A stretch of DNA of 47,757 nt from a virus (lineage: Duplodnaviria; Heunggongvirae; Uroviricota; Caudoviricetes), in the IMG/VR virus record IMGVR_UViG_2529292906_000010. One strand, written 5' to 3'. Of the stretch, positions 2,313 to 43,976 are shown piece by piece. The notes below the pieces were generated by a model. The model was given only the letters and a program-made list of their open reading frames with translations. It had not been told where the DNA came from and did not search any database. How positions within the stretch are numbered: the stretch's first letter is position 1; the number at the start of each line of letters is the position of its first letter. A program made the position numbers and the translations under genes.

Positions 2313-2440
2313 ATGGAAACAAAAAGCCCGCAGATAAATCTGCGGGCTTCTTGCGACATCCACGGAAAACCAACAACTAACCATGGGCGCCTCGACAACT
2401 CCCATTATACGTTGGTTTTCCGTGGACGCAAGAGCGAACA
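2313..2440 (-). ncRNA. candidate antisense control RNA of repA (CopA-like), with minus-strand terminator at 2322-2350
   Basis: Hairpin AGCCCGCAG-N6-CTGCGGGCT followed by a T-run on the minus strand; 15-bp stem 2360-2374/2411-2425 immediately upstream of the RepA start. Confidence 0.35.
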
Positions 2441-2441
2441 T

Positions 2442-8417: not shown

Positions 8418-8582
8418 TGTGATGATTCCCTTAAAGGTTAAGGATACTCACCACCGTCAGGTTCCAATCATTGGGTGGTGAGACGTGCAGGGTTGGAACT
8501 ACCGGACACAATGACGAACCGGCGAGTCTTACGACTCCCCCGCACGCCCCACCATAATTTGGGTGTAGCAGTGCTTTACGCA

Positions 8583-8690
8583 TAAAAAAACCGCTAACGC
8601 GGTATGCGCCATTGTGTCTACGGGGTTCCAATCCCGACCGTAGATTTTGCTACGGCTCGGAAAGTGTCCACCAATGGCGCATTCATGTCA
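8583..8690 (-). ncRNA. candidate structured small RNA upstream of antirepressor operon
   Basis: Minus-strand hairpins (GCGCCATTG/CAATGGCGC; TCTACGG/CCGTAGA) ending in CCGCGTTAGCGG + T7 terminator at 8583-8605; no ORF. Confidence 0.25.
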
Positions 8691-9173
8691 ATACGGCGGG
8701 ATTTTAACAGAGACAACCACATAGCGTGGGTTTATTGGTAGGCAGAAACAAAAAAACCGCCCTATTGAGGACGGTTCTTTCGTGCTGATCGGATTCGCGG
8801 TCCTTTCAGCATTACGTTGTTGTATAAACAACCACGCAAGCACAAGCAGCAAGTTAATTTTACCCAAAAGGTAATAATAGTCCACTATTATGCTTCAAAA
8901 AATTGTGGTTCTTGTTGTGCCTGCAAACTCACAGATTGTGGGTAGGTTACTGATTTTGTGAAAATAAACGAGTTTTTTCGTTTAATTTCTTTCCTATTAC
9001 TAATCTTAAAATAATCGTAAAATACCTGTGGACCTTCCCGCCGATTCGCACCCGGGCACCGACTTTAGGGGAGGATTCTCCGTTGCCGTACATGCAAGCA
9101 CAAGCAGCCGTGCTTGCTCTCGCGTTGTTTTCGTCGGTGGGGATGCCGTGAAACGGCCTGTAAGGGCCATACA

Positions 9174-9296
9174 ATGAAAAAATACTGTATGTGTATTTTT
9201 ATCGTTGTTACTGGAGCTTTGTTTACGCCACATGGGGAGGGTTGGAAGATTACTGATAACGCTCTGAATGTGACGATAAACATTAGCAGCAAGTAG
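9174..9296 (+). CDS. small hydrophobic protein (40 aa)
   Basis: MKKYCMCIFIVVTGALFT... with AAGGG RBS; followed by terminator at 9302-9325. Confidence 0.3.
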   Translation: MKKYCMCIFIVVTGALFTPHGEGWKITDNALNVTINISSK

Positions 9297-9301
9297 CGAT
9301 T

Positions 9302-9325
9302 AGGCCCCTTCGGGGGCCTTTTTTA
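9302..9325. terminator. hairpin terminator
   Basis: AGGCCCC-TTCG-GGGGCCT followed by TTTTTT. Confidence 0.6.
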
Positions 9326-9807: not shown

Positions 9808-9840
9808 TTATATAAATCTATAAAACTATAATTATATATT
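9808..9840. repeat. TATAATTATA palindrome site D (between parA and parG-like gene)
   Basis: Core at 9827-9836; reverse complement carries ATAGTTTTATAGATTTATATAA flank as in leader copies. Confidence 0.5.
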
Positions 9841-10507
9841 ACGCGGCAGTAGTCAGAGCCTCAAGCTGGTTGATAATCCCCTGAATAACGTCGTCTGCTT
9901 TTTTGCGTGGCGCAACGTATGAGCACTCAATGAGGCTTAAGCCCTTATCCTGAGCTTTGCTCAGAGCTGGCTTGTGGGGAATGTACTTATCGACAACAAA
10001 GTATGGCGTATTAGCCAGGTACTCTTGGGCTTCAATATAGTCAGCTTCGTTTTCAGCCGCGCCGGAAAACACCATGCAAATTTTCTTGATTGGTACACCC
10101 TTTTTAACGATGCCGTGAGCTGTGTTAACGGTGGTTTCCAGGTCATCGGTAGAGAATCTGGTTGGCAAAATAACCATATCCAGAAATTCAGAGAGCTTCG
10201 GTACTGATTCAGATGCGTAGGCACCGCCATCAACGATAACCAGGTCGTATACTTCTGATTCGATGATTTTCTGGACTTGTGATGGCGTGCCGCACGGCTG
10301 CGCCGCGATTGCAGGTTCGATATTGTTGGCCATTCTGCGTTGTACCCAACGCGTTACCGTTCCGTTAAGCACATCCATATCGATCAGGCATACATTCCAG
10401 CCAGCCTTTGCATAAGCAACTGCTAAAGCACGAGCAATGGTTGATTTGGTTACGCCGCCTTTTCCGTTGAAAATACCTACAGATATAGTCATTTGTCGAG
10501 ACTCCAT
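9839..10507 (-). CDS. parA: partition ATPase ParA (ParA/MinD family, small type Ib)
   Basis: 222 aa; deviant Walker A GKGGVTKST near N-terminus. Confidence 0.85.
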   Translation of the reverse strand: MESRQMTISVGIFNGKGGVTKSTIARALAVAYAKAGWNVCLIDMDVLNGTVTRWVQRRMANNIEPAIAAQPCGTPSQVQKIIESEVYDLVIVDGGAYASESVPKLSEFLDMVILPTRFSTDDLETTVNTAHGIVKKGVPIKKICMVFSGAAENEADYIEAQEYLANTPYFVVDKYIPHKPALSKAQDKGLSLIECSYVAPRKKADDVIQGIINQLEALTTAA

Positions 10508-11109: not shown

Positions 11110-11772
11110 TCATAACCAGTTGACAACACTAACTACGCGGCCAAGAACTTTATAACGCTTAAATTCCTCGTTATTCAGATGCTTAGTGTTCATTTCAGCA
11201 TCCCTTTCGGTTGACAGCATAACAGCATTGTCACCCGGTATGACTCTACAGTGCCTCAAAACAACCAGGCCATTTCTGTCTTCAAGGGCATAGATCCCCT
11301 CATGAACCTCTGTATCGTCTGTATTAATCAGGACTTGGGAGCCAGGGGATATTGTTGGTGACATTAGCTTTAGCTCATCGTTGCTCTGGAGAACAGACAG
11401 AGACGATGGGTTGATGTTCTTGCTTCGTAGAATCTCCTGTTCTATCGCCAGCACTGGCTTTTCTCCGGCGTGCGATGCTATGTCATTTTTTATAGCTACA
11501 AGCCCAGGAATAACAGGTGCGTTAGTATTCTGGGGTGGGAACGGGTTATCTGTTAAGCACGCGATATAAGGCGCTGATGCTTTCAGGGCGTGCGCGATTT
11601 TCTTGATGGCAGGTATAGATGGTTGTCTTAATCCGGCCTCATAGTTCTGCAAGGTGCTTAAGCCTATTCCAGTGACTTGCTGGAGATCTCCGGCAGTCAT
11701 GCCGGATTGTTTCCGTAGAGTCTGAATGCGCAGACCTATTTCTTTCTTGATGTTCTCGTCGTTGCTTTTCAT
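11110..11772 (-). CDS. CI-type repressor (N-terminal HTH, C-terminal S24/LexA-like domain)
   Basis: 220 aa; XRE HTH (LQQVTGIGLSTLQNYEAG); C-terminus has MSP and KVLGRVV motifs at the positions of the LexA-type Ser/Lys dyad; divergent from Cro-like gene. Confidence 0.75.
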   Translation of the reverse strand: MKSNDENIKKEIGLRIQTLRKQSGMTAGDLQQVTGIGLSTLQNYEAGLRQPSIPAIKKIAHALKASAPYIACLTDNPFPPQNTNAPVIPGLVAIKNDIASHAGEKPVLAIEQEILRSKNINPSSLSVLQSNDELKLMSPTISPGSQVLINTDDTEVHEGIYALEDRNGLVVLRHCRVIPGDNAVMLSTERDAEMNTKHLNNEEFKRYKVLGRVVSVVNWL

Positions 11773-18889: not shown

Positions 18890-19264
18890 GCTGTAGTGAG
18901 AATCCATGCGCTTACGAGCAGTATTCAGAGCGGGTAATGAAGCACATACAACCGAAAACATGGCAGAAACTGGACTCTATGGGAGTTAAGTTGGAGAAGA
19001 TTACTCAACTTAAGCAGTGGCATATCGGCGAATATTATGGAAGTCTTGGCCGGGATGTTCGTTTGGCAAAAAGTTGAGTATTGTTTTTTATTGATTGATT
19101 AACCACGATTTGAAGGTTTTTTATGGGAAAACCTTGTTTTAGGTGGTAACTGGGTGTAGTGTTTCATTTAACGTAGTAAAACTGCGTTAAGCGATTACCG
19201 CGTAATTTGTTGCTTTATGAAGCCCTGCCTTTTCGGTGGGGCTTTTTTTTTAACGAGGATTTCA

Positions 19265-19660
19265 ATGTCAGCAGAACCAATTTCCGGTACGGCCGTTGCT
19301 GCTGGTGGCCTGATGGGTGCCAGCGTTTTTGGTATTGCAACTGGTATTGATTACGGCGTTGTATTCGGGGCATTTGCTGGCGCTGTTTTCTATGTTGCTA
19401 CAGCGGTGAATATTAGCCGTCTCAAGCTGATTGGCTATTTCTTTACATCGTTCATTGTTGGAGTGATTGGAGCGCCGTTAGTTGGCTCATTTCTTGCCAA
19501 ATGGACCAGCTACAACGATCGTCCTCTTGATGCGCTTGGTGCGGTTATTGTGGCTGCATTGACAATTAAAATCCTCACGTTCGTAAACAGCCAGGATCTC
19601 GGTAGCATCTTTGGAATGCTTTCCCGCTTACGTGGAGGGGGTTCAAATGGTAAGCAGTGA
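19265..19660 (+). CDS. putative holin
   Basis: 132 aa with several hydrophobic helices and charged C-terminus; GAGGA RBS; first gene of lysis cassette. Confidence 0.5.
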   Translation: MSAEPISGTAVAAGGLMGASVFGIATGIDYGVVFGAFAGAVFYVATAVNISRLKLIGYFFTSFIVGVIGAPLVGSFLAKWTSYNDRPLDALGAVIVAALTIKILTFVNSQDLGSIFGMLSRLRGGGSNGKQ

Positions 19661-19943
19661 CCCGTCAGCACTGATTAATGCGGTGCTTTGCACAGTAATA
19701 GTAATGGCGCTGATGCTTTATCGACGGAAAGACTCCAGGCATCGTCCATTTGTTTCCTTTCTGGCTTATATCTACGTCATTGTATACGCCAATGTTCCCT
19801 TCCGTTATGTGTTCGGTCTTTATCAAGAATCCCACTGGCTGGTGGTTATTGGAAATCTGATTATCTGCATCGTTGTTCTGTATTTCAGGGGCAATCTGGC
19901 GCGGATAGTTGACGCATTAGGGTTTAATCATGACCAAAGATGA
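19647..19943 (+). CDS. membrane protein (holin/antiholin candidate)
   Basis: 98 aa, hydrophobic segments, between holin and endolysin. Confidence 0.45.
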   Translation: MVSSDPSALINAVLCTVIVMALMLYRRKDSRHRPFVSFLAYIYVIVYANVPFRYVFGLYQESHWLVVIGNLIICIVVLYFRGNLARIVDALGFNHDQR

Positions 19944-20472
19944 GATTTTTAACAGCGTTCTTGGAAAAGAGGGCGGCTATGTGGATCACCCTGACGACAA
20001 GGGAGGCCCAACAAAGTGGGGCATTACTCAGAACACTGCCCGTGCTCATGGATACCGTGGCGATATGCGCGATTTAACCCGCGAACAGGCACTGGAAATC
20101 CTTGAGGCTGATTACTGGTACGGACCACGCTTTGATCAGGTGGCCGCATTATCCTCTGATATTGCCGCAGAGCTGTGTGACACGGGGGTGAACATGGGGC
20201 CAACAGTGGCGTCAAAAATGCTTCAACGCTGGCTGAATGTGTTCAACCTGCGCGGGAAGCTGTATCCCGATTTGGATGCAGACGGACGAATCGGTCCACG
20301 TACCATTAATGCGCTACGTGCTTATCTTGGGAATCGGGGAAAAGACGGCGAACGGGTGATGCTGACGTCGCTGAACTGTACGCAGGGCGAACGCTATCTG
20401 GAGCTGGCGGAGAAGCGCGAGGCTAATGAGTCGTTTGTCTACGGCTGGATGAAAGAGCGAGTGGTGGTATGA
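19930..20472 (+). CDS. endolysin, GH108-type N-acetylmuramidase with peptidoglycan-binding domain
   Basis: GGYVDHPDDKGGPTKWGIT signature near N-terminus. Confidence 0.85.
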   Translation: MTKDEIFNSVLGKEGGYVDHPDDKGGPTKWGITQNTARAHGYRGDMRDLTREQALEILEADYWYGPRFDQVAALSSDIAAELCDTGVNMGPTVASKMLQRWLNVFNLRGKLYPDLDADGRIGPRTINALRAYLGNRGKDGERVMLTSLNCTQGERYLELAEKREANESFVYGWMKERVVV

Positions 20473-20747
20473 CTGGTTTGAAAGCCGTTTTGTCATTTAT
20501 CGGCACCGTTATATTGGTTGCATTCGGTGCGTTTGGTTTTGGTCGTATGAAGGGGCGAGAAAAGGCCGAAGATGAAGCTGAAAAGCAGCGCATTAATGAG
20601 AATGCAGCCGCCGTAAAAGCCACTGCGGAGCGGCGTATAGAAGTGACAAAAGAGGTGGGGAATGTACAGCAGAGTGTTAACCATATGGCTGATGACGATG
20701 TTGATCGCGAGCTGCGGGAGTCGTGGAAGCGTCCCGGTGGTGGTTGA
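20469..20747 (+). CDS. i-spanin (Rz-like)
   Basis: N-terminal TM helix then charged coiled-coil; directly after endolysin. Confidence 0.6.
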   Translation: MTGLKAVLSFIGTVILVAFGAFGFGRMKGREKAEDEAEKQRINENAAAVKATAERRIEVTKEVGNVQQSVNHMADDDVDRELRESWKRPGGG

Positions 20748-20871
20748 TACCGCCTGTGATTGGGTAAAGCCCATCTACCTGACTGATCACGACATCGATG
20801 TTATGGACCGCCAGACAAAGAAAGATATTCTGGCTCATAACAGGGCATGGGAAATCAACTGCCGAAAGTAA
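20662..20871 (+). CDS. o-spanin (Rz1-like lipoprotein), overlapping i-spanin
   Basis: Lipobox LIASC; probable start at internal Met (20692/20698). Confidence 0.55.
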   Translation: MYSRVLTIWLMTMLIASCGSRGSVPVVVDTACDWVKPIYLTDHDIDVMDRQTKKDILAHNRAWEINCRK

Positions 20872-20912
20872 TATATATTTCTATAATTATATAAATATAT
20901 AGTTACAACATT
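20871..20912. repeat. TATAATTATA palindrome site G
   Basis: Core at 20882-20891 in AT-rich DNA after lysis cassette. Confidence 0.45.
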
Positions 20913-20946
20913 CTATGCGCTTTTCTCATGGCGCACGCATCAACCA

Positions 20947-21029
20947 TGTTTGTCTGATATGCCGCCGCGCCCAAAAATCCTGAATTTATTGGCTGGGATT
21001 TTCGTGCGCGGCGCCACACCAGACAAACA
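20947..21029. repeat. long imperfect inverted repeat upstream of tRNA
   Basis: TGTTTGTCTG...GCCGCCGCGC (20947-20970) pairs with GCGCGGCGC...CAGACAAACA (21006-21029); loop has AAAATCC/GGATTTT. Confidence 0.4.
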
Positions 21030-21039
21030 AATCAAATAT

Positions 21040-21115
21040 GGCCCCTTAGCTTAGTGGTTAGAGCAGGCGACTCATAATCGCACGGTCATCGGTTCAAATC
21101 CGGTAGGGGCCACCA
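21040..21115 (+). tRNA. tRNA with CAU anticodon (Met or Ile2/lysidine type)
   Basis: 76-nt cloverleaf: acceptor GGCCCCT/AGGGGCC, anticodon loop CTCATAA, T-loop GGTTCAAATCC, 3' CCA; recalled as close to E. coli tRNA-Ile2. Confidence 0.8.
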
Positions 21116-21423
21116 ATTCACCCTCACACATAAAGATAAGCGCGGTGGAGTTACTTCTTCGTGCTCATCTTTATGCGTGCCTGGTGCACATTTCGGGAAG
21201 CCGTTGGTTAGTGAGTACAGGCAGGGCCTGTTATCCGCAAAGGGGTAAAAGCTGGAGCGGCACGGAACTGTAGCCGTGTTACCAAAACAGCGTTGTCGGG
21301 CGATATCCGGCACACAACAGGCAAGGGCATTAATCAGTCTGGTTAGTGCCCTTTTCGTTGTGTCTGCTGTAGAGCTGGCCAGCGTTATGACTGCCGGAGA
21401 TAAGCGCCGGAGGCACAACTAAC

Positions 21424-22011
21424 ATGGAGGCAATTGCATTGTTTAATCTGATTTATGCAGATCCCCCCTGGGAATACAAAGATAAGTGTAAGGATGGGAA
21501 TCGTGGAGCTGGTTTTAAGTATCCAACGATGAAAGCTGAGGATATTGCTCGTATTCCTGTCTGGCAGCTTGCTAATCCTGAATCGTGTTTGTTGGCCATG
21601 TGGTGGGTTCCGACTCAGCCAGAAGAAGCGTTGCTGGTGGTGAAAGCATGGGGATTCAGGCTTATGACCATGAAGGGCTTCACATGGAACAAATGTGGTA
21701 GCCGACAACCAGATAAGCTGGTGATGGGGATGGGGCATATGACTCGTGCAAACAGTGAAGATTGCTTGTTTGCGGTAAAAGGCAAATTGCCGACCCGCCT
21801 TGATGCGGGGATCATTCAGTCGTTTACATCGCCTCGTCTGGAGCATTCTCGGAAGCCTGATGTGGTTCGTGACAAGCTGGTAAGGCTGTTAGGTGATGTT
21901 CCTCGTATTGAGCTGTTTGCTCGCGGTGATTTACCTGATGGTTGGCATGGCTGGGGCAACCAGTGCAATGGAGGTATCCAGTTGCATGATGCTCTCTGGC
22001 AAGTGGCATAG
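21424..22011 (+). CDS. orphan N6-adenine DNA methyltransferase, MT-A70 family
   Basis: DPPW motif (IYADPPWEY) near N-terminus; no adjacent restriction endonuclease. Confidence 0.75.
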   Translation: MEAIALFNLIYADPPWEYKDKCKDGNRGAGFKYPTMKAEDIARIPVWQLANPESCLLAMWWVPTQPEEALLVVKAWGFRLMTMKGFTWNKCGSRQPDKLVMGMGHMTRANSEDCLFAVKGKLPTRLDAGIIQSFTSPRLEHSRKPDVVRDKLVRLLGDVPRIELFARGDLPDGWHGWGNQCNGGIQLHDALWQVA

Positions 22012-22122
22012 AATTATATAATTATAGATTTATATAAAAAGTGCTTTACAGGTGGGAAAAAATTTCCTAAGGTTATACCCGAAACCGAGCGATACCCGCC
22101 CTGGTTAAACCGGAGAAATCTG
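22011..22122 (+). promoter_or_regulatory. conserved promoter-leader element, copy C
   Basis: Near-identical to copies A and B; core at 22017-22026. Confidence 0.5.
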
Positions 22123-22419
22123 ATGAAAGTACAAGACCGTGAAGTAGTAAAAAACCTCCTGCAATACCTGACCTCAAAAAACCTGACGGGCAGCGTTGAG
22201 TTCCGTGAAGCGTTAAAACATTTCAACGTCACTACGGTTTATCGTTGGGAAAACAAACATTCTGAAAGACCGTATGTGGTGGATGTTTTTGCGCCTGATA
22301 TTGAGTGCGGTTTTGAGCGTCATTCGTTCAAGGAGAAACATTCTGCTGATTTTTTTGTGAGGTTGTATGTGCGGCAGGAGATGATGAGTGATGCGTATTT
22401 CCTTCAAACGTGCGACTGA
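22123..22419 (+). CDS. hypothetical protein
   Basis: 98-aa ORF after leader copy C. Confidence 0.5.
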   Translation: MKVQDREVVKNLLQYLTSKNLTGSVEFREALKHFNVTTVYRWENKHSERPYVVDVFAPDIECGFERHSFKEKHSADFFVRLYVRQEMMSDAYFLQTCD

Positions 22420-22588
22420 GCAGCAACGCAAAGAGTTCCTGGCTGATGATGTAGCGGCCGTTTATGACCTCATGAAAGAGGTTGTGGAATCAGGGAACTA
22501 CACGGCGGCAAAGATGCTTAAACTGCAATTCTTGCTGGGCGACCTGAAATACAAATCCGAAGTTGTCGCCGGACGACGCGAGCATTAA
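22391..22588 (+). CDS. hypothetical protein
   Basis: 65-aa ORF (alternative GTG start 22388). Confidence 0.4.
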   Translation: MRISFKRATEQQRKEFLADDVAAVYDLMKEVVESGNYTAAKMLKLQFLLGDLKYKSEVVAGRREH

Positions 22589-22610
22589 ACCGTAACGATA
22601 ACGAACAACG

Positions 22611-22637
22611 AGCCTCGGCAATTGCCGGGGCTTTTTT
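22611..22637 (+). terminator. rho-independent terminator
   Basis: CCTCGGCAA/TTGCCGGGG hairpin + TTTTTT. Confidence 0.55.
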
Positions 22638-22662
22638 ACATCCAGACAAAGGAGAACATGGG

Positions 22663-22962
22663 ATGCCTTCGACAAGCACCAAAAAAGAAATGGCGGTTAG
22701 TGATGTGCTTTACGCGCTTTCGACTATATGTGACGGAGCAATGATGAGGATGAAAGTCCTCCGTGAAGCATACGGAAAAAGTCACGATGAGGCAGCTAAA
22801 GAATGCCTGAATGAGATTGTGGACTTCATTGATAACCATCGTTCAGTTATATCGCGTCAACCGACAGAGTCGTCCATCACGATTAGCGCACCGGTTATCA
22901 ATATATCAGTAACTGCGGCGTGTAAATCAGCAGCGGAAGATGATCGTGCTTATGCCGAGTGA
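22663..22962 (+). CDS. hypothetical protein
   Basis: 99-aa ORF. Confidence 0.5.
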   Translation: MPSTSTKKEMAVSDVLYALSTICDGAMMRMKVLREAYGKSHDEAAKECLNEIVDFIDNHRSVISRQPTESSITISAPVINISVTAACKSAAEDDRAYAE

Positions 22963-23152
22963 TTTGTTCTGGTTTCCGCTTCCAATAAGAGATTTGTTGG
23001 TATTTCTGGCTGGCGCTTACGTCTGGAGAAAAGCGAAAGATACCTCGTTATCTTTGAGGTTTGTCTTAGCTATATCGGTAGGAACCGCGCTGGGTACGGC
23101 GTATCTCTTGATATTACTGGAGGTATTCATTGAAAAATGGATAGTTTCATGA
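22940..23152 (+). CDS. small membrane protein
   Basis: 70 aa with two hydrophobic helices. Confidence 0.45.
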   Translation: MIVLMPSDLFWFPLPIRDLLVFLAGAYVWRKAKDTSLSLRFVLAISVGTALGTAYLLILLEVFIEKWIVS

Positions 23153-23301
23153 ATGGTCTTGGCATTTTTCTGATGGTTGTGGCTGTGTGTTTTTGTATCT
23201 CGCTGGTGGTTATTGCTGGTGTCCTGTGGCGCATCTTAGTGGCGCAGAGAGCTTTTCGGCTTAAGCGGGAGCAAATGCGCCTTGATTTCTATCGAAAGTA
23301 A
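23149..23301 (+). CDS. small membrane protein (50 aa)
   Basis: ATGA start-stop overlap with upstream gene; one TM helix then basic tail; below ORF-track length cutoff. Confidence 0.4.
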   Translation: MNGLGIFLMVVAVCFCISLVVIAGVLWRILVAQRAFRLKREQMRLDFYRK

Positions 23302-23308
23302 CTCTTAC

Positions 23309-23336
23309 AGCCTCGCGTGTCGCGGGGCTTTTATTT
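23309..23336 (+). terminator. rho-independent terminator
   Basis: CCTCGCG-TGT-CGCGGGG + T-rich tail. Confidence 0.5.
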
Positions 23337-23348
23337 TCAGGTGATGTT

Positions 23349-23759
23349 ATGGAAAAGAAAGAAGATAAACCGATTGCCATTGGTGCAGAGTCTGTTCCGT
23401 TTAAGTTTGAATTATCCCAACTGGTAACAATGCGTATCAGTGAAGAGTGGGGAGAAGTTCAAGCCCGTGCTCAGTATGCAAATGGCGAAAACCAGTATTT
23501 GATTCACTATCAGGCGGCTGATGGTCGTGCTACCACAGAGTGGTTCGGTGAATCGATGTTGATTGCGATGGAAGATGATCGTTATCCAGGCTGCCCTGTT
23601 TTTGCCTGTGTTGATTTGCCAGAAGGCGCGGTACTTGAAGACGACAAAGAAGAATGCTCGTCTGATGGCGAACTTGTCATTACTGGAATCGTTGATGGTA
23701 AGCCGGAATACTCTCGTATTGAGGTAAATAACGGCCGCATCCGTTTGATCCCTGCGTAA
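23349..23759 (+). CDS. hypothetical protein
   Basis: 136-aa acidic ORF. Confidence 0.5.
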   Translation: MEKKEDKPIAIGAESVPFKFELSQLVTMRISEEWGEVQARAQYANGENQYLIHYQAADGRATTEWFGESMLIAMEDDRYPGCPVFACVDLPEGAVLEDDKEECSSDGELVITGIVDGKPEYSRIEVNNGRIRLIPA

Positions 23760-23820
23760 CGCATTACAGCAGCTCTTGTGCTTACCAGGGGCTGCGATAA
23801 TGCGCAAACCAAAGCTGCCT

Positions 23821-23866
23821 CATTAACTCCAGCTCGCTGTGGAGTTAATGCTGGTGGCTTTTTTAT
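23821..23866 (+). terminator. hairpin with downstream T-run
   Basis: CATTAACTCC-N10-GGAGTTAATG then TTTTTT at 23860. Confidence 0.4.
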
Positions 23867-23993
23867 TACTGGAAGGTGGGCGACCGCCGTCAGTTGCGAC
23901 CTGACGACAGTCATTCATACCCACAGGGTGCCGTGGATACAAACCGAGGCCCACTTGCTTGCACAAGCGAGGGGATTTTAGCGGATAAACGGC

Positions 23994-24617
23994 ATGACAA
24001 AACATCTTAATGTGGTTTCTTTACCACTTTCTGTGTTGATTGGTTATGAAAAGAACGCTCGCACACACTCCGTGGAGCAGGTAGATCAGATTATTGCCAG
24101 CATACAGGAGTACGGATGGACTAATCCGATCCTGATAGACGAGAACAACGTTGTAATTGCTGGTCATGGTCGAATTGCTGCGGCCACTCAGTTGGGGATG
24201 GATGATGTTCCCTGCATTGTTCTGGCTGGGCTAACGGAGAATCAGAAGAAGGCATATCGTCTGGCCGACAACCGTATTCCGCTGAATGCTGGTTGGGATG
24301 AAGAGTTGTTAAGCGCGGAGCTTGCAGATCTTGCGGCCGATGATTTTGCTCTGGACTCAATTGGTTTTACTCAGCGCGAACTGGATAACTTATTGAGTGC
24401 GGCGGTCTACGATGACACAGAGGGTATGGATATCCCATTTGAGAAGGATGAGGCCAAATCAGGCGTAAAAGTTCAGTACCTGTCATTTGGAGGTCATAAA
24501 ATCCCGGCAACGGATGAGGAAGCGGATCGTTTTGACTGCGCGGTGTCTCGTTATGTTGATGATAATGGCAGCTATATCGGATTTGTATCCGCATTGCTGG
24601 CTGGGGAGGTGTGCTGA
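23994..24617 (+). CDS. ParB/Srx-like nuclease-domain protein
   Basis: 207 aa; IAGHGRIAA box; paralogue of 27284-27874. Confidence 0.6.
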   Translation: MTKHLNVVSLPLSVLIGYEKNARTHSVEQVDQIIASIQEYGWTNPILIDENNVVIAGHGRIAAATQLGMDDVPCIVLAGLTENQKKAYRLADNRIPLNAGWDEELLSAELADLAADDFALDSIGFTQRELDNLLSAAVYDDTEGMDIPFEKDEAKSGVKVQYLSFGGHKIPATDEEADRFDCAVSRYVDDNGSYIGFVSALLAGEVC

Positions 24618-25990
24618 TGCTTCACCTCAATTACGACATAACGCACCTACGCGGCGCGGAATATAACCCGCGTTTTATCGGTGAGGATGATCTTGCGAGG
24701 CTGGCGGAAAGCGTCAGGGAGCTGGGGCTTGTGAAGCCATTGATAGTGCGCGGCGATTTGCTGGTGGCGGGACACCAAAGGACGAAGGCGCTACGTAAGT
24801 TGGGAATAACGCGTGCTGCGGTGTATGTGTTGCCCTGTGAAACGACGGTATACGACGAAGTACGGTTTAACCAACTGCATAACGGAACGGATTTTGATAG
24901 CGGAGATGAGCGTTGCAGGGTGTCCGGTCTGGAAGATAAGCATGGTTTTGTTCAGGTATCGGCAAGCCAGATCTCAGGCAATATGCGCGCGAAAATGGCA
25001 TATGTTCGAAAGAACATAGCGGAACTGGTTATCAAGTATGGTCCGTGGGGTGGTTGTGTTGCTACTCAGTCTGGTGAGGTTATTCACTGTGCTCAGTATG
25101 CATTAGCAGCGAAAATGACGCGCACACCGCTAACGGTGTTTGTGATCCCTGATGTTGAGAAGGAAAAATACCAAAGTTATCTGAATAAAACTTATGGTGT
25201 ATTTGAGTATTCTCATCTGGAGAAAACAACATACATCCAGACGTATGCGCAGCTTATGCGGTTGCGTAATGGTGGCAGCCTGAAATCAAATCTGTATGAG
25301 TCGTTGATCCTCCCGATCGTTGCCAAGACGCCAAGAGGAATTGATTTTGGTTCGGGGCAGGGAGACTACGCGCGAATGCTCAGGGCAAAGGGATATAACC
25401 TGCATGATCTTGAGCTTTTTCGCCGTAAGGGCGCTGGAAACACTCTGGATAGGGCTGCAACAAACCGAATGATTGATACGCTGGTGGACGACTTAAAAAC
25501 GCGAGGGCGTTACGACTACGTGATTTGCGATAGCGTTTTGAACTCGGTCGATAGTGTCGAGGCTGAATGGTCCGTTCTGACGGTTCTGAAAGGCCTGTGT
25601 AAAGCTGGTGGGTCAATATTCTTTTCTGGTCGTAGCCGTGGAGAGCTGGAAACAGTCCTGAAGCAAACACAAGCGGCGAGTTCCAAAAGCCGGCTTTATT
25701 TTATTGATCATAACGGTTTTACCGCGTTGTACCGGAAGGGGCACTGGTTTTACCAGAAGTTTCACTCTGATGATGAAGTGAAGCAGTTGTGTCGTGTACA
25801 TGGTTTCAGGATTAAGCGGTCAATATTCAACTGTAAGAGCTGGTATTTGCACGTCATTAACGATGATTCCCTTAGTTGGGCGAGTCTGGAGAAAGCTGTT
25901 CGTTTTGAGTTTGAGTTGCCGTTGCCTGGTGGTTCAACAATCGGACGATCTGATGATGTGCTGGCGGCTTTCCGGCCGTTGATTAAGTAG
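24611..25990 (+). CDS. ParB/Srx-like N-terminal domain fused to class I SAM-dependent methyltransferase domain
   Basis: 459 aa; VAGHQRTKA box; motif I GIDFGSGQGDYARML; no DPPY/NPPY motif. Confidence 0.6.
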   Translation: MLMLHLNYDITHLRGAEYNPRFIGEDDLARLAESVRELGLVKPLIVRGDLLVAGHQRTKALRKLGITRAAVYVLPCETTVYDEVRFNQLHNGTDFDSGDERCRVSGLEDKHGFVQVSASQISGNMRAKMAYVRKNIAELVIKYGPWGGCVATQSGEVIHCAQYALAAKMTRTPLTVFVIPDVEKEKYQSYLNKTYGVFEYSHLEKTTYIQTYAQLMRLRNGGSLKSNLYESLILPIVAKTPRGIDFGSGQGDYARMLRAKGYNLHDLELFRRKGAGNTLDRAATNRMIDTLVDDLKTRGRYDYVICDSVLNSVDSVEAEWSVLTVLKGLCKAGGSIFFSGRSRGELETVLKQTQAASSKSRLYFIDHNGFTALYRKGHWFYQKFHSDDEVKQLCRVHGFRIKRSIFNCKSWYLHVINDDSLSWASLEKAVRFEFELPLPGGSTIGRSDDVLAAFRPLIK

Positions 25991-26006
25991 TGTGTAGGAG
26001 GCGCTG

Positions 26007-26726
26007 GTGGCTGACAGAATTGAGATAAAGATGGATTTTTCTTCTCAGGATATTCAACGACAACTCCAGCGCCTTGAAGAACGCGAATTGCCGTTCGCAA
26101 TGGCGCTTGCGGCAACCAGAACGGCAAAGGCTTCTCAGGCTGCGATTAAGAATGAAATTAATCGGGTATTTGACAGGCCCACGCCGTGGATTCAGAACTC
26201 TACTTACGTTTTGGCCGCAAAGAAGAGTGATCCTACAGCCATTGTGTATGCTCGTGAATGGGGAGGAACGCCAGCCCCTGTAACGTTGACTCCGCAAATT
26301 GAAGGTGGCCAACGACAGTACAAACGCTCAGAAGGGGCGCTAAGGGCTGGTGGATATTTGCCTAACGGCTGGCAGCTTGCTCCTGGTCCCGGCGCAAAGC
26401 TGGACAAATACGGGAATATTTCGCGGGGGCAATTACAGAAGGTCTTATCTGGCCTAAGAGTTCAGCGAGATGCGCATCAAAATCGCCGTCAGGGCAAGCC
26501 TACGGAGTTTTTTGTTGTTCGACCTGGTACAGGTAACCCGCTTCAACCAGGCGTCTGGCAGCGCGTTGGGCGGCGTCCTACGTTGATCCTTACGTTTATC
26601 CAGCAACCTAACTATTCACAGCGTCTTGATTGGCATGGCGTGGCGCTGCGTGCTGGTGAGGATGCGTTTGCTGATGAAGTCACAAAGGCTATTGATGACA
26701 TTCTTTCTAAGACCTTCTCTCGTTAA
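26007..26726 (+). CDS. hypothetical protein
   Basis: 239-aa ORF with GTG start. Confidence 0.5.
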   Translation: MADRIEIKMDFSSQDIQRQLQRLEERELPFAMALAATRTAKASQAAIKNEINRVFDRPTPWIQNSTYVLAAKKSDPTAIVYAREWGGTPAPVTLTPQIEGGQRQYKRSEGALRAGGYLPNGWQLAPGPGAKLDKYGNISRGQLQKVLSGLRVQRDAHQNRRQGKPTEFFVVRPGTGNPLQPGVWQRVGRRPTLILTFIQQPNYSQRLDWHGVALRAGEDAFADEVTKAIDDILSKTFSR

Positions 26727-27283
26727 TCATCGTGTGGTTGATGGTGTTGTTATGCAGAGTGTATTCACTGTGTTCTGTAGCGTCGCTCGCTGGCTGTCTG
26801 TGGGGGAGCACGAGCATCGTTTCATCGTCCGGCAGAATTGGGTCCTTCTGGCCAAAAGCGTTGGATGCGGGTCATTCGAACCCCGATGTTCGGCTAGCTA
26901 AACGTGAAAAAAGTTAGGTTAAAAGTTGCGGTAAAAGAAATTTACTCATCTCATTGAAAAATATCGGGAAAACGTGATTTTTTGCTGTATTTGTGCTGGT
27001 AAAAAGAAAGTAGGAAATTTTCTTTTAGATCATCAAGATACGCGCAGATCTTTAACCAATGTGATGTTGTTCTGATAAAAATCGTTATAAATCATGTAAA
27101 TACATCCAATCTTTTAACCAAAACACCATCGCAAGATCCTTTTTACTTATAAAAACTTAATAAAATCAGATAATTATGCTGGTTTGTGTGATTTTTTATG
27201 AGTAAAAAGATCGTCATTTTTCTCTTTTAGTATCAATAAGTTAAACAGTTTTCTTTAACCTGTTGTGTTATGGCGGTTAAAAA

Positions 27284-27874
27284 ATGGCTCTAAAAATCGA
27301 ATATTTACCAGTCGGTAAGCTGCTCAGATATGCCAAAAATTCACGGACTCATTCAGATGAGCAAGTTGAACAGTTGGTGAACAGTATCCGTGAGTTCGGT
27401 TTCACTAATCCTGTGCTGATCGATGAAAAGAATGAACTGATTGCGGGGCATGGTCGGCTTGCAGCAGCCGAAATTCTGGAAATGGATAAAGTTCCGGCGA
27501 TTCGGTTGAGTAACCTTTCTGAAAAACAGAAGAAGGCTTACAGGATTGCAGATAACAAGCTGGCCTTAAATGCTGGTTGGGATATGCAGCTTCTGGCCGA
27601 AGAAGTCAAAGAGTTAATGGATGATGATTTTGATATTGATCTGCTTGGGTTTAATGATGCAGAGCTTGACGAAATGTTAAGCGATGAACAGCCGCAGGAA
27701 GAAGACGATAATTCTTCCCCTGTTGTTCAAATTAAGTACCTGGCTATTGATAAAGAACGTATTCCCGCGACGGATATGGAAATTGCATTGTTGCTGGATG
27801 TTTATCGTCAGTACCACGATGCGCATGAAACGCATGAGGGATTTGTTCAGTATCTTGCTAATGGTTGCAAGTAA
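27284..27874 (+). CDS. ParB/Srx-like nuclease-domain protein
   Basis: 196 aa; IAGHGRLAAA box; immediately upstream of terminase small subunit. Confidence 0.6.
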   Translation: MALKIEYLPVGKLLRYAKNSRTHSDEQVEQLVNSIREFGFTNPVLIDEKNELIAGHGRLAAAEILEMDKVPAIRLSNLSEKQKKAYRIADNKLALNAGWDMQLLAEEVKELMDDDFDIDLLGFNDAELDEMLSDEQPQEEDDNSSPVVQIKYLAIDKERIPATDMEIALLLDVYRQYHDAHETHEGFVQYLANGCK

Positions 27875-28430: not shown

Positions 28431-30287
28431 ATGGGCGAAACAGTATGGAGCACCGCTTTTTTCCGTGCGCTTCGCCCTAAATCACGGCTAACTGTTTCCG
28501 AATGGGCTGATAAGTATCGTCATGTAGCGCCGGGAACGTCTCCAGAGCCAGGGCCGTGGCGTACAAGCCGAGTGCCATATTTGCGTGAACCAATGGATGT
28601 TATTGGTGACGCTGATACAGAAACAGTAGTGATGCAATGTAGCTCGCAAATTGGTAAATCCGAATTACAGCTAAATGTTATGGGTTACTTTGCAGATCAG
28701 GAGCCATCTCCTCAGTTGATGATTTATCCAACGGTAGAGGCGGCTGAGGCTTTTTCAAAGGAGCGTATTGATCCGACGTTCAAATATTCCCCTGGTTTGA
28801 AACACAAGCTGCATGAAGGAAAAGAGGGGCGCGGTGCAGCCAAAAAGTCCAGCACGACTATACGTATGAAGCATTACGCTGGTGGATATATAGCACTTGT
28901 TGGTGCTAATTCCCCAGCAGGTCTTGCATCCAGGCCAATTCGAATACTGTTAGCTGATGAGATTGATCGTTACGGTGTGACGCAGGAGGGCGACCCACTA
29001 AAACTAGGTATTCAGCGTACTACCAACTTTCATAATCGTAAGAAAGTTTTTGTTTCTACTCCTGTTTTTGAGGAAACGAGCAAAATCCACAAGTGGTTTA
29101 AGCTCTCCGATCAGCGTTACTACCATGTTCCTTGCCCATGTTGTGGCACCATGCAGGTGATGAAATGGTCGCAAGTCAGATGGGATAAGAGCGATTCAGG
29201 TGAGGCGTTACCGGAAACGGCCAGATATGAGTGCTGTGAGTGCGGCGGGATTATGCGCGGATCTGGTAAACCAGACGTTGATTGGTTGGCAAAGGGGGTA
29301 TGGATAGCTGAACATACTGGAGTTAAAGGTATTGTTGGTTTTCATATTAACAGTCTTTACTCCCCGTGGGTTGCATTGTCAGAGCTGGTTGAAGAATTTA
29401 CGGAAGCAACCAGAAACCGCGATAAAAATGGATTAATGGAGTTTATTAACCTTAAGCTGGGTGAGCCATGGAAAGAGGATGCTAAAGACGATATCGATCC
29501 TGAATACTTGTTGCAACGCAGAATAAGGTTTGAAGAGTTTTTACCAGATGATGTTTTATTGTTAAGTGCTGGTGTTGACGTACAGGACACGTATTTAGTT
29601 TGTGAATTGGTCGGTTGGGGAAAAGGTAAGGAGTCATGGGGGATAGAATATAAAATATTCCCAGGTGATCCCGCACAAGATGTTGTCTGGAAACAACTTG
29701 ATGAATACTTACTCCGTAGCTGGTCATTCCGTGACGGTCGAAAATTACAGATTTCTTCTGTTTGTATTGACTCTGGTGGGCATTTTACGACAGAGGTATA
29801 TCGCTTCACTAAGCTGAGAGAATCAAGGCGAATATACTCTATCAGGGGGCGTGGTGGGGTAGGTTTACCATTTATAGGAAAGCCAAGTAATAATAACCGT
29901 GTGGGTGCTATGTTGTTTAATTTGGGGGTTGATGATGGTAAAGGGACCATCATGGCAAGAATTAAACTACATGATCCTGGTCCTGGTTATATGCATTTCC
30001 CATTAGATTCTGACAGAGGATATGATACCGAATACTTTAAAGGATTATTATCAGAGAAAAAAATATTTGAATATAAAAATGGGCAGACAAAAGAAAAGTG
30101 GGTGAAAGTCTACGAGCGTAACGAGCCTCTTGATTGCCGTAACTATGCAACTGCCGCGATGGAAATTCTGAACCCTAATTTTAACTGGCTTGCCGAACAG
30201 GAAATGCGAGGTAATGTGTATGTGCAGAACTCGTCAGGTATACGTAGAAGACGCCGTAGAGTTATAAGTAAAGGCGTAAACATATAG
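28431..30287 (+). CDS. terminase large subunit (lambda gpA family)
   Basis: 618 aa; position and length typical of gpA-type terminase. Confidence 0.85.
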   Translation: MGETVWSTAFFRALRPKSRLTVSEWADKYRHVAPGTSPEPGPWRTSRVPYLREPMDVIGDADTETVVMQCSSQIGKSELQLNVMGYFADQEPSPQLMIYPTVEAAEAFSKERIDPTFKYSPGLKHKLHEGKEGRGAAKKSSTTIRMKHYAGGYIALVGANSPAGLASRPIRILLADEIDRYGVTQEGDPLKLGIQRTTNFHNRKKVFVSTPVFEETSKIHKWFKLSDQRYYHVPCPCCGTMQVMKWSQVRWDKSDSGEALPETARYECCECGGIMRGSGKPDVDWLAKGVWIAEHTGVKGIVGFHINSLYSPWVALSELVEEFTEATRNRDKNGLMEFINLKLGEPWKEDAKDDIDPEYLLQRRIRFEEFLPDDVLLLSAGVDVQDTYLVCELVGWGKGKESWGIEYKIFPGDPAQDVVWKQLDEYLLRSWSFRDGRKLQISSVCIDSGGHFTTEVYRFTKLRESRRIYSIRGRGGVGLPFIGKPSNNNRVGAMLFNLGVDDGKGTIMARIKLHDPGPGYMHFPLDSDRGYDTEYFKGLLSEKKIFEYKNGQTKEKWVKVYERNEPLDCRNYATAAMEILNPNFNWLAEQEMRGNVYVQNSSGIRRRRRRVISKGVNI

Positions 30288-43659: not shown

Positions 43660-43976
43660 ATAATACGTTTACCATATTATCACCTTCTTACTCGATTGAT
43701 TGGTCGCCCAAAACAGTTGTAGAAGAAGTTTTGCAAAATGTCTCTACTATTATTAACACTCAGATTGGCACTGTACCATATGCCAGAAAATTAGGAGTTA
43801 ATTCAAGTCTTGTTGATAGCCCCAGTCCAATTTTTATTGCTACAGCAACACGAGAAATAATTCAAAAAATTAGTGAGTTTGAGCCTAGAGCGATTATCCA
43901 TTCTGTTACTTTTGAAAGAACGGACGTTTCTGATGGTTTTATTAGGCCAAAACTTGTGATAGGAGTTAGAGAATGA
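43656..43976 (+). CDS. baseplate wedge protein W (gp25-like)
   Basis: 106 aa immediately upstream of baseplate J. Confidence 0.65.
   Translation: MNNTFTILSPSYSIDWSPKTVVEEVLQNVSTIINTQIGTVPYARKLGVNSSLVDSPSPIFIATATREIIQKISEFEPRAIIHSVTFERTDVSDGFIRPKLVIGVRE

Follow-up and report, generated by a model that had tools for sequence, protein, structure and literature searches.

Between the lysis cassette and the gene of an MT-A70 methyltransferase, a phage-plasmid of E. coli carries a 550-bp non-coding island (20872-21423) with conserved ends and exchangeable cargo in its middle. The Escherichia lineage carries a tRNA-Ile2 gene as this cargo. Directly upstream of this gene lies an 83-nt imperfect hairpin, which is not an accessory of the tRNA but a separately conserved element, and compensatory changes among its variants show that selection maintains its pairing as a stem-loop. 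Our best guess is that the hairpin is an element of the minus strand which forms the fixed left border of the variable non-coding island. The picture as a whole, a tRNA-Ile2 cargo island plus a separate minus-strand stem-loop border element, we hold to be somewhat on the probable side.

The DNA analyzed here in its entirety, referred to as the window (47,757 nucleotides), is the nearly complete genome of a temperate phage-plasmid of about 48 kb. Its gene set combines an IncFII-type RepA, ParA, a CI-like repressor and a P1-like C4/antirepressor immunity region with a lambda gpA-type terminase and myovirus-type structural genes; no tyrosine integrase was present among the ORFs scanned. An A+T-rich gap at 26.9-27.3 kb is likely to be the cos region. 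GC skew is positive along the entire plus strand of the window. The features considered are the following:

2.3-3.3 kb: IncFII-type repA
9.8-10.5 kb: ParA
19217-19660: holin, upstream of the island
19930-20472: GH108 endolysin, upstream of the island
20469-20747 and 20662-20871, plus strand: overlapping ORFs in the position of Rz/Rz1 spanin genes, end of the lysis cassette (ORF list)
20872-20916: A+T-rich block, roughly 45 bp long, which contains 8-bp periodic repeats and closes with the conserved motif TAGTTACAACATTC (repeat families D1, I3-I8)
20917-20942: small hairpin ahead of the large one (folds)
20947-21029: 83-nt imperfect hairpin (structure, energies, covariation)
21030-21039, plus strand: A/U-rich spacer AATCAAATAT of 10 nt from the hairpin to the 5' end of the tRNA, unpaired in the fold
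21040-21115, plus strand: tRNA gene assigned to tRNA-Ile2, anticodon CAU, encoded CCA end (ARAGORN, Rfam)
21125-21179, plus strand: trailer hairpin on the immediate 3' side of the tRNA, with arms of 27 nt that are 78% complementary (inverted repeat I2, fold)
21217-21353, plus strand: conserved structured non-coding segment with an intrinsic terminator at its end
21354-21423, plus strand: leader of some 70 nt in front of the methyltransferase start codon, with hardly any variation between lineages (alignment)
21424-22011, plus strand: MT-A70 family DNA methyltransferase gene, right-hand neighbor of the island (Pfam PF05063, E = 3.4e-23)
28.4 kb: gpA-type terminase

Organization of the non-coding island

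An earlier note on this DNA, made from the sequence alone, had sited the tRNA and the repeat between the lysis cassette upstream and the methyltransferase downstream, and this context is correct. The island is limited on the left by the stop codon at 20869-20871. DNA of the ORF pair ending there (20469-20871) matches the Rz-like spanin genes of phage mEp390, and neither of the two ORFs gave a match in Pfam. The methyltransferase gene on the right is also supported by the PGAP annotation of a near-identical plasmid. Homology to divergent relatives skips the lysis genes, resumes exactly at 20872-21028 and then again from 21217 onward, where a DNA identity of 73-77% runs from the structured segment into the methyltransferase gene. 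The lysis cassette itself is non-homologous to that of the divergent relatives, and the large hairpin travels with the methyltransferase-side module, not with the lysis genes.

Several parts of the island besides the large hairpin are conserved in sequence or in structure. The 14-nt motif TAGTTACAACATTC that ends the A+T-rich block is invariant across lineages and occurs once in the window. At the position of the small hairpin a stem-loop persists in relatives despite different sequence: two of the 9 pairs of its helix are changed on both sides, and all 37 close relatives have one extra base at 20917-20942. In Salmonella-type relatives the stem homologous to the trailer hairpin encloses, in the alignment, an extra structured insert of about 100 nt. 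The intrinsic terminator found by the terminator scan at 21323-21353 on the plus strand is followed by a T-rich tail, and its stem shows compensatory changes in relatives (AAGGGCA/TGCCCTT versus AAGAGCG/CGCTCTT, and also AAGAGCAC/GTGCTCTT). The leader in front of the methyltransferase scored 27-29 bits against rydB RNA, below the gathering score of 50, and its core motif recurs after an unrelated methyltransferase in one other locus (L151). When 33 GTDB species loci and 70 IMG/VR loci were scanned with the methyltransferase as anchor, no similar island was detected.

Identity and expected use of the tRNA

The 76-nt tRNA with anticodon CAU described in the earlier note was recovered by ARAGORN as the sole tRNA in the window (21040-21115, plus strand, anticodon CAT), and its cloverleaf scored 65.8 bits with the Rfam tRNA model (RF00005; gathering score 29). 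Of the two identities that had been offered, Met or, if lysidine-modified, Ile2, the evidence favors tRNA-Ile2 and not tRNA-Met, since the acceptor stem, the PGAP label of an identical copy and the enrichment of AUA codons all point to Ile2. The gene is 88.2% identical to the chromosomal tRNA-Ile(CAU) gene found in all 5,426 of 5,426 complete E. coli genomes. Both genes share the acceptor stem (5'-GGCCCCU / AGGGGCC-3') and positions 28-42 of the anticodon arm. The pairs 4:69 and 5:68 are the main identity elements for E. coli TilS (PMC11947777). The phage tRNA has both in the form C4:G69 and C5:G68, the TilS elements that separate tRNA-Ile2 from tRNA-Met.

Annotations of related genes differ. 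A copy with 100% identity in NZ_CP028194.1 carries the PGAP label tRNA-Ile and the homologue of P7 (93% identity) is annotated as tRNA-Ile, while the GenBank records of three Yersinia phages give tRNA-Met on the basis of the anticodon alone, as does ARAGORN. Our assignment would correct these labels to an AUA-decoding tRNA-Ile2. An initiator tRNA-fMet leaves position 1:72 unpaired and has three G:C pairs in a row (29-31:39-41) in its anticodon stem; this identity was rejected, as G1:C72 is paired and positions 29-31 are C, G and A.

The E. coli chromosomal tRNA-Ile(CAU), an ileX-type, lysidine-dependent decoder of AUA, shares the CAU anticodon and the encoded CCA end with the phage tRNA. The phage tRNA differs by U13 (C13 in most relatives), by A43/C44 instead of U43/U44, and in the T-stem and T-loop. 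With A43 at the position of the U43 of E. coli, it has a G27.A43 mismatch that could affect recognition of the anticodon stem by TilS. A promoter of its own, TTGCGA-N17-TATAAT, immediately precedes the chromosomal gene, whereas the phage gene has no recognizable promoter of its own.

Supplying tRNAs for rare codons is a well-known strategy of large and of temperate phages, and the tRNA-Ile2 found here is of a known kind: 938 phage records and 663 plasmid records match it, and P7/P1-like plasmids and D6 carry the same tRNA type (91% identity to D6). Its setting is not the same. The tRNA of P7, located upstream of ban, and that of D6 come immediately after a small coding gene, with neither hairpin nor A+T block in front, whereas in the phage-plasmid studied here it lies within a structured non-coding island after the lysis genes.

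The codon usage of late genes, proposed in the earlier note as a check, does show an enrichment of AUA. The frequency is 16.7 per 1000 codons in the whole window. Among the late structural genes (27 kb to the window end) it rises to 21.5 per 1000, where AUA makes up 32% of Ile codons, and the genes at 43973-45671 reach 47-48 per 1000. E. coli uses AUA at 4.9 per 1000 (PMC12514573), which makes the codon about four times commoner in the late structural genes than in the host. The phage tRNA is thus predicted to read the rare AUA codon after lysidine modification by TilS. It would be transcribed together with the late genes and excised by host RNase P and RNase E; host TilS would convert C34 to lysidine and IleRS would then charge the tRNA, so that the added AUA-decoding capacity may serve the AUA-rich late structural genes. 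Such use agrees with the accepted view that temperate phages bring along tRNAs for those codons which they use more heavily than their host.

The hairpin is independent of the tRNA

The inverted repeat upstream of the tRNA is real. Its description as a two-part repeat did not hold, and one continuous imperfect hairpin is the better wording: the arms at 20947-20980 and 20996-21029 are 34 nt each and 85% complementary, and they enclose a loop of 15 nt (20981-20995). The complementary AAAATCC/GGATTTT that had been noticed inside the repeat is present and forms the apex of the same stem. As RNA, the plus strand folds with -40.3 kcal/mol (z = -6.75, none of 200 shuffles as good) and the minus strand with -53.9 kcal/mol (z = -8.85). 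DNA parameters rank the strands alike, with -33.8 kcal/mol for the bottom and -25.3 kcal/mol for the top strand. The 5' arm occurs once in the window, at a chance expectation of 0.00 matches, and the hairpin is invariant in 36 of 37 full-length close copies. It is flanked on its 3' side by AATCAAATAT on the plus strand and by ATGGTTGATG on the minus strand, where the order is hairpin, small hairpin and A/U-rich tract. In one variant (L021) the minus strand has, directly beside the hairpin, an 11-bp stem without mismatches and TTTTGAT after it. The plus strand is certainly transcribed in lytic growth, and the hairpin is still very stable there (-40 kcal/mol).

A link between repeat and tRNA, as implied by the earlier note, was not borne out, since a hairpin without tRNA, a hairpin distant from the tRNA and a tRNA without hairpin all occur. 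Four Salmonella-type variants (L022/L092, L131, L154 and L155) have the hairpin without any tRNA, and in L021/L093 the two are separated by 316 nt. P7 and D6 have the homologous tRNA and no such hairpin, which rules out that the hairpin generally accompanies tRNA-Ile2 in phages. In IMG/VR, PLSDB and metagenomes the hairpin was found only in the context of this island. A covariance model of the hairpin retrieved nothing beyond the known copies, and a degenerate two-gap pattern of it gave only chance matches in IMG/VR.

A number of known element types were considered for the hairpin region and rejected. A 22-codon ORF at 20915-20983 lacks a Shine-Dalgarno sequence, is frameshifted by a 1-nt indel in 37 of 37 close relatives and lies in a different frame in L021, which argues against a coding region or leader peptide. 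Membership in an Rfam 15 family was dismissed, because the only matches were to generic hairpins (microRNA precursors) with 15-32 bits at gathering scores of 70-113; at gathering and at E <= 10 Rfam returned the tRNA and generic hairpin noise only, and nothing for the divergent loci. A dispersed repeat of the MITE, REP or ERIC kind does not agree with a single copy in the window and confinement to one plasmid family. The terminator scan reports only 21323-21353 (plus strand) and 20623-20604 (minus strand), a standard scan finds no sigma-70 promoter at the hairpin or the A+T block, and ATATAGTTACAACATTC, considered as a repeated late-promoter motif, is unique in the window. A plasmid origin, partition, cos or attachment site is not expected here, with repA, ParA and the terminase and likely cos gap all far from 20.9 kb. 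The 15-nt non-palindromic loop and the imperfect arms argue against a protelomerase target (tel site), and, judged by eye, the arm ends do not fit the core sites of an integron attC.

Covariation and strand asymmetry of the hairpin

Seven of the 34 pairs of the hairpin are changed on both sides across six variants, which represent only about three deep lineages, so that few independent events underlie the counts of covariation and of asymmetry. On four of five measures none of 500 shuffles reached the observed covariation value, and when the alignment was slid into other registers only 24-50% of positions were paired.

The two strands are not equivalent in this respect. In all six variants the fold of the minus strand is more stable, by 3-13 kcal/mol. 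Read as plus strand, none of the 204 cells (pair positions in the six variants) is a G.U and each non-pair is an A.C or a pyrimidine-pyrimidine combination; read as minus strand, the A.C positions turn into eight G.U cells, with a covariation score of 0.188 instead of 0.118. The non-Watson-Crick positions of these variants all favor the minus (bottom) strand as the folding strand. One change in a metagenomic copy (L146) gives a G.U on the plus strand and runs against the asymmetry.

Possible roles of the hairpin

The mechanism that we prefer, and consider possible though short of probable, is that the hairpin acts on leftward (antisense) transcripts leaving the cargo island. There it may serve as a stop or as a 3'-end stem-loop, with the A/U-rich tract next to it, and the lysis genes would thereby be shielded from antisense transcription. 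Within the window, the minus strand rightward of the hairpin yielded no sigma-70-like promoter, and all credible ORFs near the hairpin are on the plus strand; the antisense transcript is therefore hypothetical. Since no U-tract follows the hairpin on either strand, it is not a canonical intrinsic terminator. The position resembles that of lambdoid morons. The lambda bor moron sits at the same position downstream of Rz and is transcribed leftward in lysogens; in both cases accessory cargo directly follows the spanin genes within the late operon, and the cargo island, which has its own terminator (21323-21353), can be compared with this arrangement. A leftward transcription unit that ends beside the spanin genes, as in a lambdoid moron, would be in line with the bias of the hairpin toward the bottom strand. 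Unlike lambda bor, the island has no protein-coding moron and no detectable leftward promoter, and its cargo is non-coding RNA, either a tRNA or, in Salmonella relatives, structured blocks.

The same stem-loop might instead work as RNA of the plus strand: within the polycistronic late mRNA it would be a processing site of the RNase III type or a stabilizer of the 3' end. The hairpin would then separate the lysis mRNA from the cargo, the A/U-rich spacer AAUCAAAUAU would be an entry site for RNase E, and RNase P would trim the tRNA. Plus is the coding strand of all neighboring genes, the hairpin lies exactly between lysis cassette and cargo, its pairing is conserved, and on this strand, too, it is stable (-40.3 kcal/mol, z = -6.75). 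Its duplex is imperfect, some 30 bp long and interrupted by internal loops, which is the general shape of T7 RNase III sites; the T7 R-sites, lambda sib and the N leader are likewise long (about 30 bp) imperfect intercistronic stem-loops in polycistronic phage transcripts. In silico the stem has the length of an RNase III site (at least about two helical turns of double-stranded RNA), but the wobble asymmetry speaks against selection on the plus strand: G.U cells number 0 of 204 on the plus and 8 on the minus strand, and all mismatches are worse on the plus strand. The hairpin showed no detectable sequence or Rfam relationship to the phage RNase III hairpins, and its wobble pattern is on the strand opposite to the mRNA. 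This pattern also disfavors the role in tRNA processing on the plus strand suggested in the earlier note. Phage tRNA-Ile2 genes elsewhere do without the hairpin, and its movement with the methyltransferase-side module instead of the lysis genes speaks against this role as well, which we consider rather unlikely.

The strand asymmetry would also fit a signal in single-stranded DNA of the bottom strand, because G.T is the best-tolerated mismatch in DNA. This could be a hairpin for primosome assembly or priming (ssi/PAS-like) or a hairpin promoter, for which F Frpo and the M13 minus-strand origin are models, exposed in lytic rolling-circle replication. The greater stability of the bottom-strand DNA hairpin (-33.8 versus -25.3 kcal/mol) and the adjoining A+T-rich block are in line with it, and each arm contains a -35-like TTGTCT and a -10-like A/GAAAAT at a spacing of 17 in its most conserved parts. 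The match of these promoter-like elements covers no more than 8 of 12 positions, and under relaxed scan settings one turns up about every 200 nt; for the promoter or regulator role raised earlier there is thus a hexamer pair in each arm that is weak and of a kind frequent by chance. A plasmid origin is expected beside the IncFII-type repA (2.3-3.3 kb), 18 kb away. If the positive skew of the plus strand tracks replication, plus would be the exposed lagging-strand template. We know of no single-stranded DNA stage in cos-type phages except lagging-strand synthesis, which also counts against such a signal, and on balance we judge it quite improbable.

Least probable of all, in our estimate, is a site in double-stranded DNA, be it for a dimeric regulator, as promoter or operator of the cargo, or as a recombination linker for swaps of lysis cassette and cargo. 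Hairpin and A+T block do form conserved borders flanking non-homologous or variable DNA, the arm sequence is conserved in its outer (GTTTG.CTG) and apical (CGAAAATCC) parts, and L155 corrects three mismatches all on one arm, which resembles repair within a palindrome. A role as recombination border, in the sense of the recombination site named in the earlier note, would be compatible with the mosaic structure. A double-stranded site does not explain why seven pairs in the variable middle part of the arms show compensatory changes on both sides, or why every mismatch favors one strand. Arms of 34 nt are much longer than typical operators, and further copies of the motif, which a regulator site or late promoter might have, are absent from the window.

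A broader scheme, which we put forward tentatively and regard as a little more doubtful than the antisense mechanism itself, unites a bottom-strand-specific hairpin, be it an antisense RNA end or a single-stranded DNA signal, and the A+T block into a conserved docking border. On either side of this border lysis cassettes and non-coding RNA cargo would be exchanged, the cargo being tRNA-Ile2 in Escherichia and structured RNAs in Salmonella, in a widespread family of enterobacterial phage-plasmids of about 48 kb. If an antisense or single-stranded DNA function holds, the island would be a small, tractable example of insulation and exchange of non-coding cargo in a phage late operon; if the bottom-strand bias is not functional, the hairpin would be one more intercistronic stem-loop.

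Distribution of the module

A literature search on ileZ of Stx phages and on this phage-plasmid family yielded nothing usable. The module of hairpin and tRNA island was found in 70 of the 5,426 complete E. coli genomes, among them the reference strain ATCC 25922, where it lies on a 48.4-kb plasmid. These genomes contain 71 sites, 70 of which lie on plasmids, and identity to the query is 95% or more at every site. Among the matches listed, the plasmids bearing the module measure 46-94 kb, mostly about 48 kb, and the family is common in clinical and veterinary E. coli.

Genomic context

The analyzed DNA is an almost complete genome of a temperate phage-plasmid, with the following features:

1577-2131, serine invertase
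2313-3290, RepA, IncFII-type
7087-8229 (-), ORF6N/Rha antirepressor, with C4 and isrK antisense-RNA matches ahead of it
8471-8559 (-), 8584-8656 (-) and 9028-9324 (+), Rfam matches of the C4/isrK/ryfA region
9839-10507, ParA
11110-11772, CI-like repressor
19217-19660, holin
19930-20472, endolysin, GH108
20469-20871, two overlapping ORFs in the Rz/Rz1 position
21125-21179, trailer hairpin 3' of the tRNA
21217-21353, conserved structured non-coding segment (terminator scan and alignment)
21424-22011, MT-A70 methyltransferase, right of the non-coding island
23994-24617, ParB-like protein
24611-25990, ParB-N/methyltransferase fusion
27284-27874, ParB-N protein, just before the terminase genes
28431-30287, terminase, lambda gpA-type

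Yersinia phages vB_YpM_39, 41 and 44 contain near-identical DNA (97-98%). The module is present in 70 of 5,426 complete E. coli genomes, among them ATCC 25922, and 70 of its 71 places there are plasmids, those listed being 46-94 kb and mostly about 48 kb in size. Further carriers are 58 plasmids in PLSDB and roughly two dozen contigs from IMG/VR and metagenomes. DNA-modification-type genes, including the MT-A70 methyltransferase, are densely clustered at 21424-27874, up to the terminase genes. C4 antisense RNA, isrK and ryfA, adjoining the antirepressor gene, score above the Rfam gathering score, and the region looks like a P1/P7-style immI immunity module with a full-length ryfA homologue on a phage-plasmid. 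At the left end (1-1129) lie minus-strand ORFs, among them a tail-fibre assembly gene, and at the right end (45702-47735) a long plus-strand ORF; together with the invertase they suggest an invertible tail-fibre segment, and also that the window is circularly permuted relative to the genome.

The tRNA is a predicted tRNA-Ile2

In the whole window of 47,757 bp ARAGORN called a single tRNA (21040-21115, plus strand, anticodon CAT), and the Rfam tRNA model scored 65.8 bits (gathering score 29). Both tools thus accept the cloverleaf of the tRNA(CAU) that an earlier note had placed at this site. That note left the isotype as Met, or Ile2 if lysidine-modified; acceptor stem, annotation and AUA usage speak for Ile2 and not Met. 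The chromosomal tRNA-Ile(CAU) gene of every one of the complete E. coli genomes matches the window tRNA at 88.2%, with an identical acceptor stem (GGCCCCU/AGGGGCC) and identical anticodon-arm positions 28-42. Pairs 4:69 and 5:68, used by E. coli TilS to separate tRNA-Ile2 from tRNA-Met (PMC11947777), are both C:G. Plasmid NZ_CP028194.1 carries a 100% identical copy annotated by PGAP as tRNA-Ile, as is the P7 homologue (93% identity). Initiator features were not found in the tRNA sequence: G1:C72 is paired and the anticodon stem lacks GGG/CCC. The label 'tRNA-Met' given by ARAGORN and in the Yersinia phage records reflects nothing but the anticodon letters. Lysidine modification and charging with isoleucine are predicted.

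The window tRNA differs from the host gene by A43 and C44 (U43 and U44 in the host), resulting in G27.A43, by compensated changes in the T arm, and by U13. This base (21052, U13.G22 wobble) is C13 in most relatives, including the aligned close ones; U13 also occurs in a few other copies.

Codon usage fits a tRNA-Ile2. In a crude ORF set of the window AUA reaches 16.7 per 1000 codons (27% of Ile codons), in the structural genes from 27 kb to the end 21.5 per 1000 (32%) and in the lysis genes 3.8 per 1000 (6%), compared to 4.9 per 1000 in E. coli (PMC12514573). The AUA enrichment in late genes for which the note had proposed to look is thus found in the structural genes. AGA (10.3 per 1000) and AGG (7.7 per 1000) levels of the whole window look high for an E. 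coli host, and the phage has no tRNA-Arg. In Stx phages ileZ is paired with argN and argO. Matches to tRNA-Ile(CAU) were found in 938 phage and 663 plasmid records; such genes on phages and phage-plasmids are widespread and already known, and the useful result here is the corrected isotype.

Mosaic structure of the non-coding island

The tRNA lies in a 550-bp non-coding island (20872-21423) between the lysis cassette and the methyltransferase gene. A leader before the holin gene (18921-19188) is common to the window and distant loci; by eye, a terminator-like hairpin with stem and T-run is visible at about 19110-19145. The lysis genes (19189-20871) show no homology with Salmonella-type relatives, while the flanking non-coding DNA is kept at 70-88% identity. 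Homology restarts exactly at the spanin stop codon, covering an A+T block and two hairpins (20872-21028), breaks a second time after 21028 and restarts at 21217, continuing through the methyltransferase gene. This suggests that the lysis cassette was exchanged between conserved non-coding borders, and the middle of the island is variable cargo. Relatives have, in place of the tRNA or besides it, a conserved non-coding block with GTATCCGAGCGGATTGCAGCGCCGGTCGACGCAAAGACCCG whose length varies between them (about 130-230 nt), and also a structured insert (about 100 nt) inside the homologue of the tRNA trailer hairpin (plasmid L154, 1960-2110 and 2185-2325; related loci L092, 7990-8690, and L093, 6170-6750). 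Neither showed an Rfam match or an obvious ORF.

The highly structured segment 21217-21353, for which Rfam gave no match, lies midway in the late operon and has an intrinsic terminator at its end. The stem of this terminator shows compensatory changes between lineages, and in Salmonella-type relatives the terminator loop is expanded by about 35 nt. The following 70 nt up to the methyltransferase start codon (21354-21423) are almost invariant in relatives otherwise about 75% identical, and include a sub-threshold rydB-like match (21366-21421, 27-29 bits, gathering score 50). The leader core ATGACTGCCGGAGATAAGCGCCGG recurs directly after an unrelated DNA methyltransferase gene on an IMG/VR contig (L151, 4000-4023). 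Within the island a standard scan called no sigma-70 promoter, so the tRNA most likely derives from read-through late transcripts; these would have to pass the terminator at 21353, implying antitermination or partial read-through.

A conserved hairpin independent of the tRNA

The inverted repeat upstream of the tRNA, described earlier as two-part, is real but forms a single hairpin with 34-nt arms (20947-20980 and 20996-21029, 85% complementary) and a 15-nt loop; the 24-nt outer arms make up the lower half of its stem and AAAATCC/GGATTTT the upper half. Predicted folding energies are -40.3 kcal/mol for plus-strand RNA (z-score -6.75) and -25.3 kcal/mol for plus-strand DNA, and -53.9 (z-score -8.85) and -33.8 kcal/mol for the minus strand. 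In each of the four cases none of 200 shuffles folded as well. The 5' arm occurs once in the window, and with 71 places in the E. coli genomes a dispersed repeat was rejected, as was a coding sequence after comparison of the reading frame with relatives. A standard scan does not call a canonical terminator there. Rfam matched no family, and a covariance model found no homologues beyond the known copies. The hairpin is a conserved, uncharacterised stem-loop that occurs only in a small group of enterobacterial phage-plasmids.

Among 37 full-length close copies the hairpin is invariant in 36 and the 30 nt immediately to its left are variable, but these relatives were too similar to be informative. 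A small hairpin to the left (20917-20942) lacks one base at 20931/20932 that all 37 possess. Using the methyltransferase gene and conserved DNA patterns we found distant relatives with five further variants (loci L021/L093, L022/L092, L131 and Salmonella plasmids L154 and L155). Among the six variants 17 of 34 pairs are constant and seven are altered on both sides. On the plus strand 84.8% of the 204 cells (34 pairs in six variants) are paired; slid registers gave only 24-50%, and none of 500 shuffles matched the observed paired cells, double changes or covariation score. A four-sequence alignment including the small hairpin agrees. The loop is variable, and the arms are most conserved at the base (GTTTG.CTG) and the apex (CGAAAATCC).

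In the Escherichia lineage the tRNA follows the hairpin immediately; in L021 a 316-nt non-coding insert precedes a diverged tRNA-Ile2. L022, L131, L154 and L155 have the hairpin without any tRNA, and in P7 and D6 the homologous tRNA lies immediately 3' of a small coding gene without the hairpin. The tRNA therefore does not require the hairpin, nor is the hairpin confined to the tRNA; it is a separate element under selection. The earlier observation itself was confirmed and its interpretation partly supported, the link between repeat and tRNA not being supported.

Strand preference and possible function

On the plus strand each non-Watson-Crick position in all variants is A.C or pyrimidine-pyrimidine, G.U being found in none of the 204 cells. 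Read on the minus strand, these positions become purine-purine or, in 8 cells, G.U; pairing then reaches 88.7% of cells and the covariation score 0.188, compared to 0.118 on the plus strand. Minus-strand RNA folds are more stable by 3-13 kcal/mol in all six variants, and DNA parameters again favor this strand for the window hairpin. From lineage to lineage the eight A.C positions fall at different places, and they originate from both G-to-A and T-to-C changes on the plus strand; we are not aware of one mutational bias that could account for this, and a G-rich coding strand with its usual C-to-T bias would be expected to yield the opposite pattern. One metagenomic copy (L146) has a plus-strand G.U. 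For comparison, the plus strand of the trailer hairpin has G.T at three positions and A.C at two (repeat listing), as expected for a plus-strand RNA structure. We conclude that selection probably acts on the folded minus strand of the hairpin, which speaks against a site acting purely as duplex DNA and makes a plus-strand processing role less likely. The feature is ordinary overall, with the strand-biased hairpin as one modest open question.

Each arm contains promoter-like boxes (-35-like TTGTCT, -10-like AAAAAT or GAAAAT, 17 bp spacing) which face each other (20950-20978, plus; 21026-20998, minus) and coincide with the best-conserved portions of the arms. They match at just 8 of 12 positions, as a relaxed scan often finds.

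A plus-strand hairpin of RNase III or stabiliser type within the late transcript would agree with the position of the element but not with its wobble pattern, and we regard it as rather unlikely. Strand asymmetry and the boxes in the arms would also suit a bottom-strand ssDNA priming signal; however, repA is far away and the strand would be wrong for a lagging-strand template if GC skew tracks replication direction, making this improbable. The mosaic borders could reflect a duplex protein-binding or recombination-linker site, a very improbable one given the compensatory changes and the strand asymmetry.

Our preferred, though tentative, reading is that the hairpin may stop leftward transcripts out of the cargo island or form their 3' end. 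No minus-strand promoter was found by standard or relaxed scan and a U-tract after the hairpin is absent on both strands, both counting against leftward termination. For it speak the location at the border towards the lysis genes and the minus-strand order of large hairpin, small hairpin and 45-nt A/U-rich tract, which would suit such a stop, as well as a perfect 11-bp stem followed by TTTTGAT directly beside the hairpin on the minus strand of L021. Lambda has its bor gene at this same location, downstream of Rz, and lysogens transcribe it leftward.
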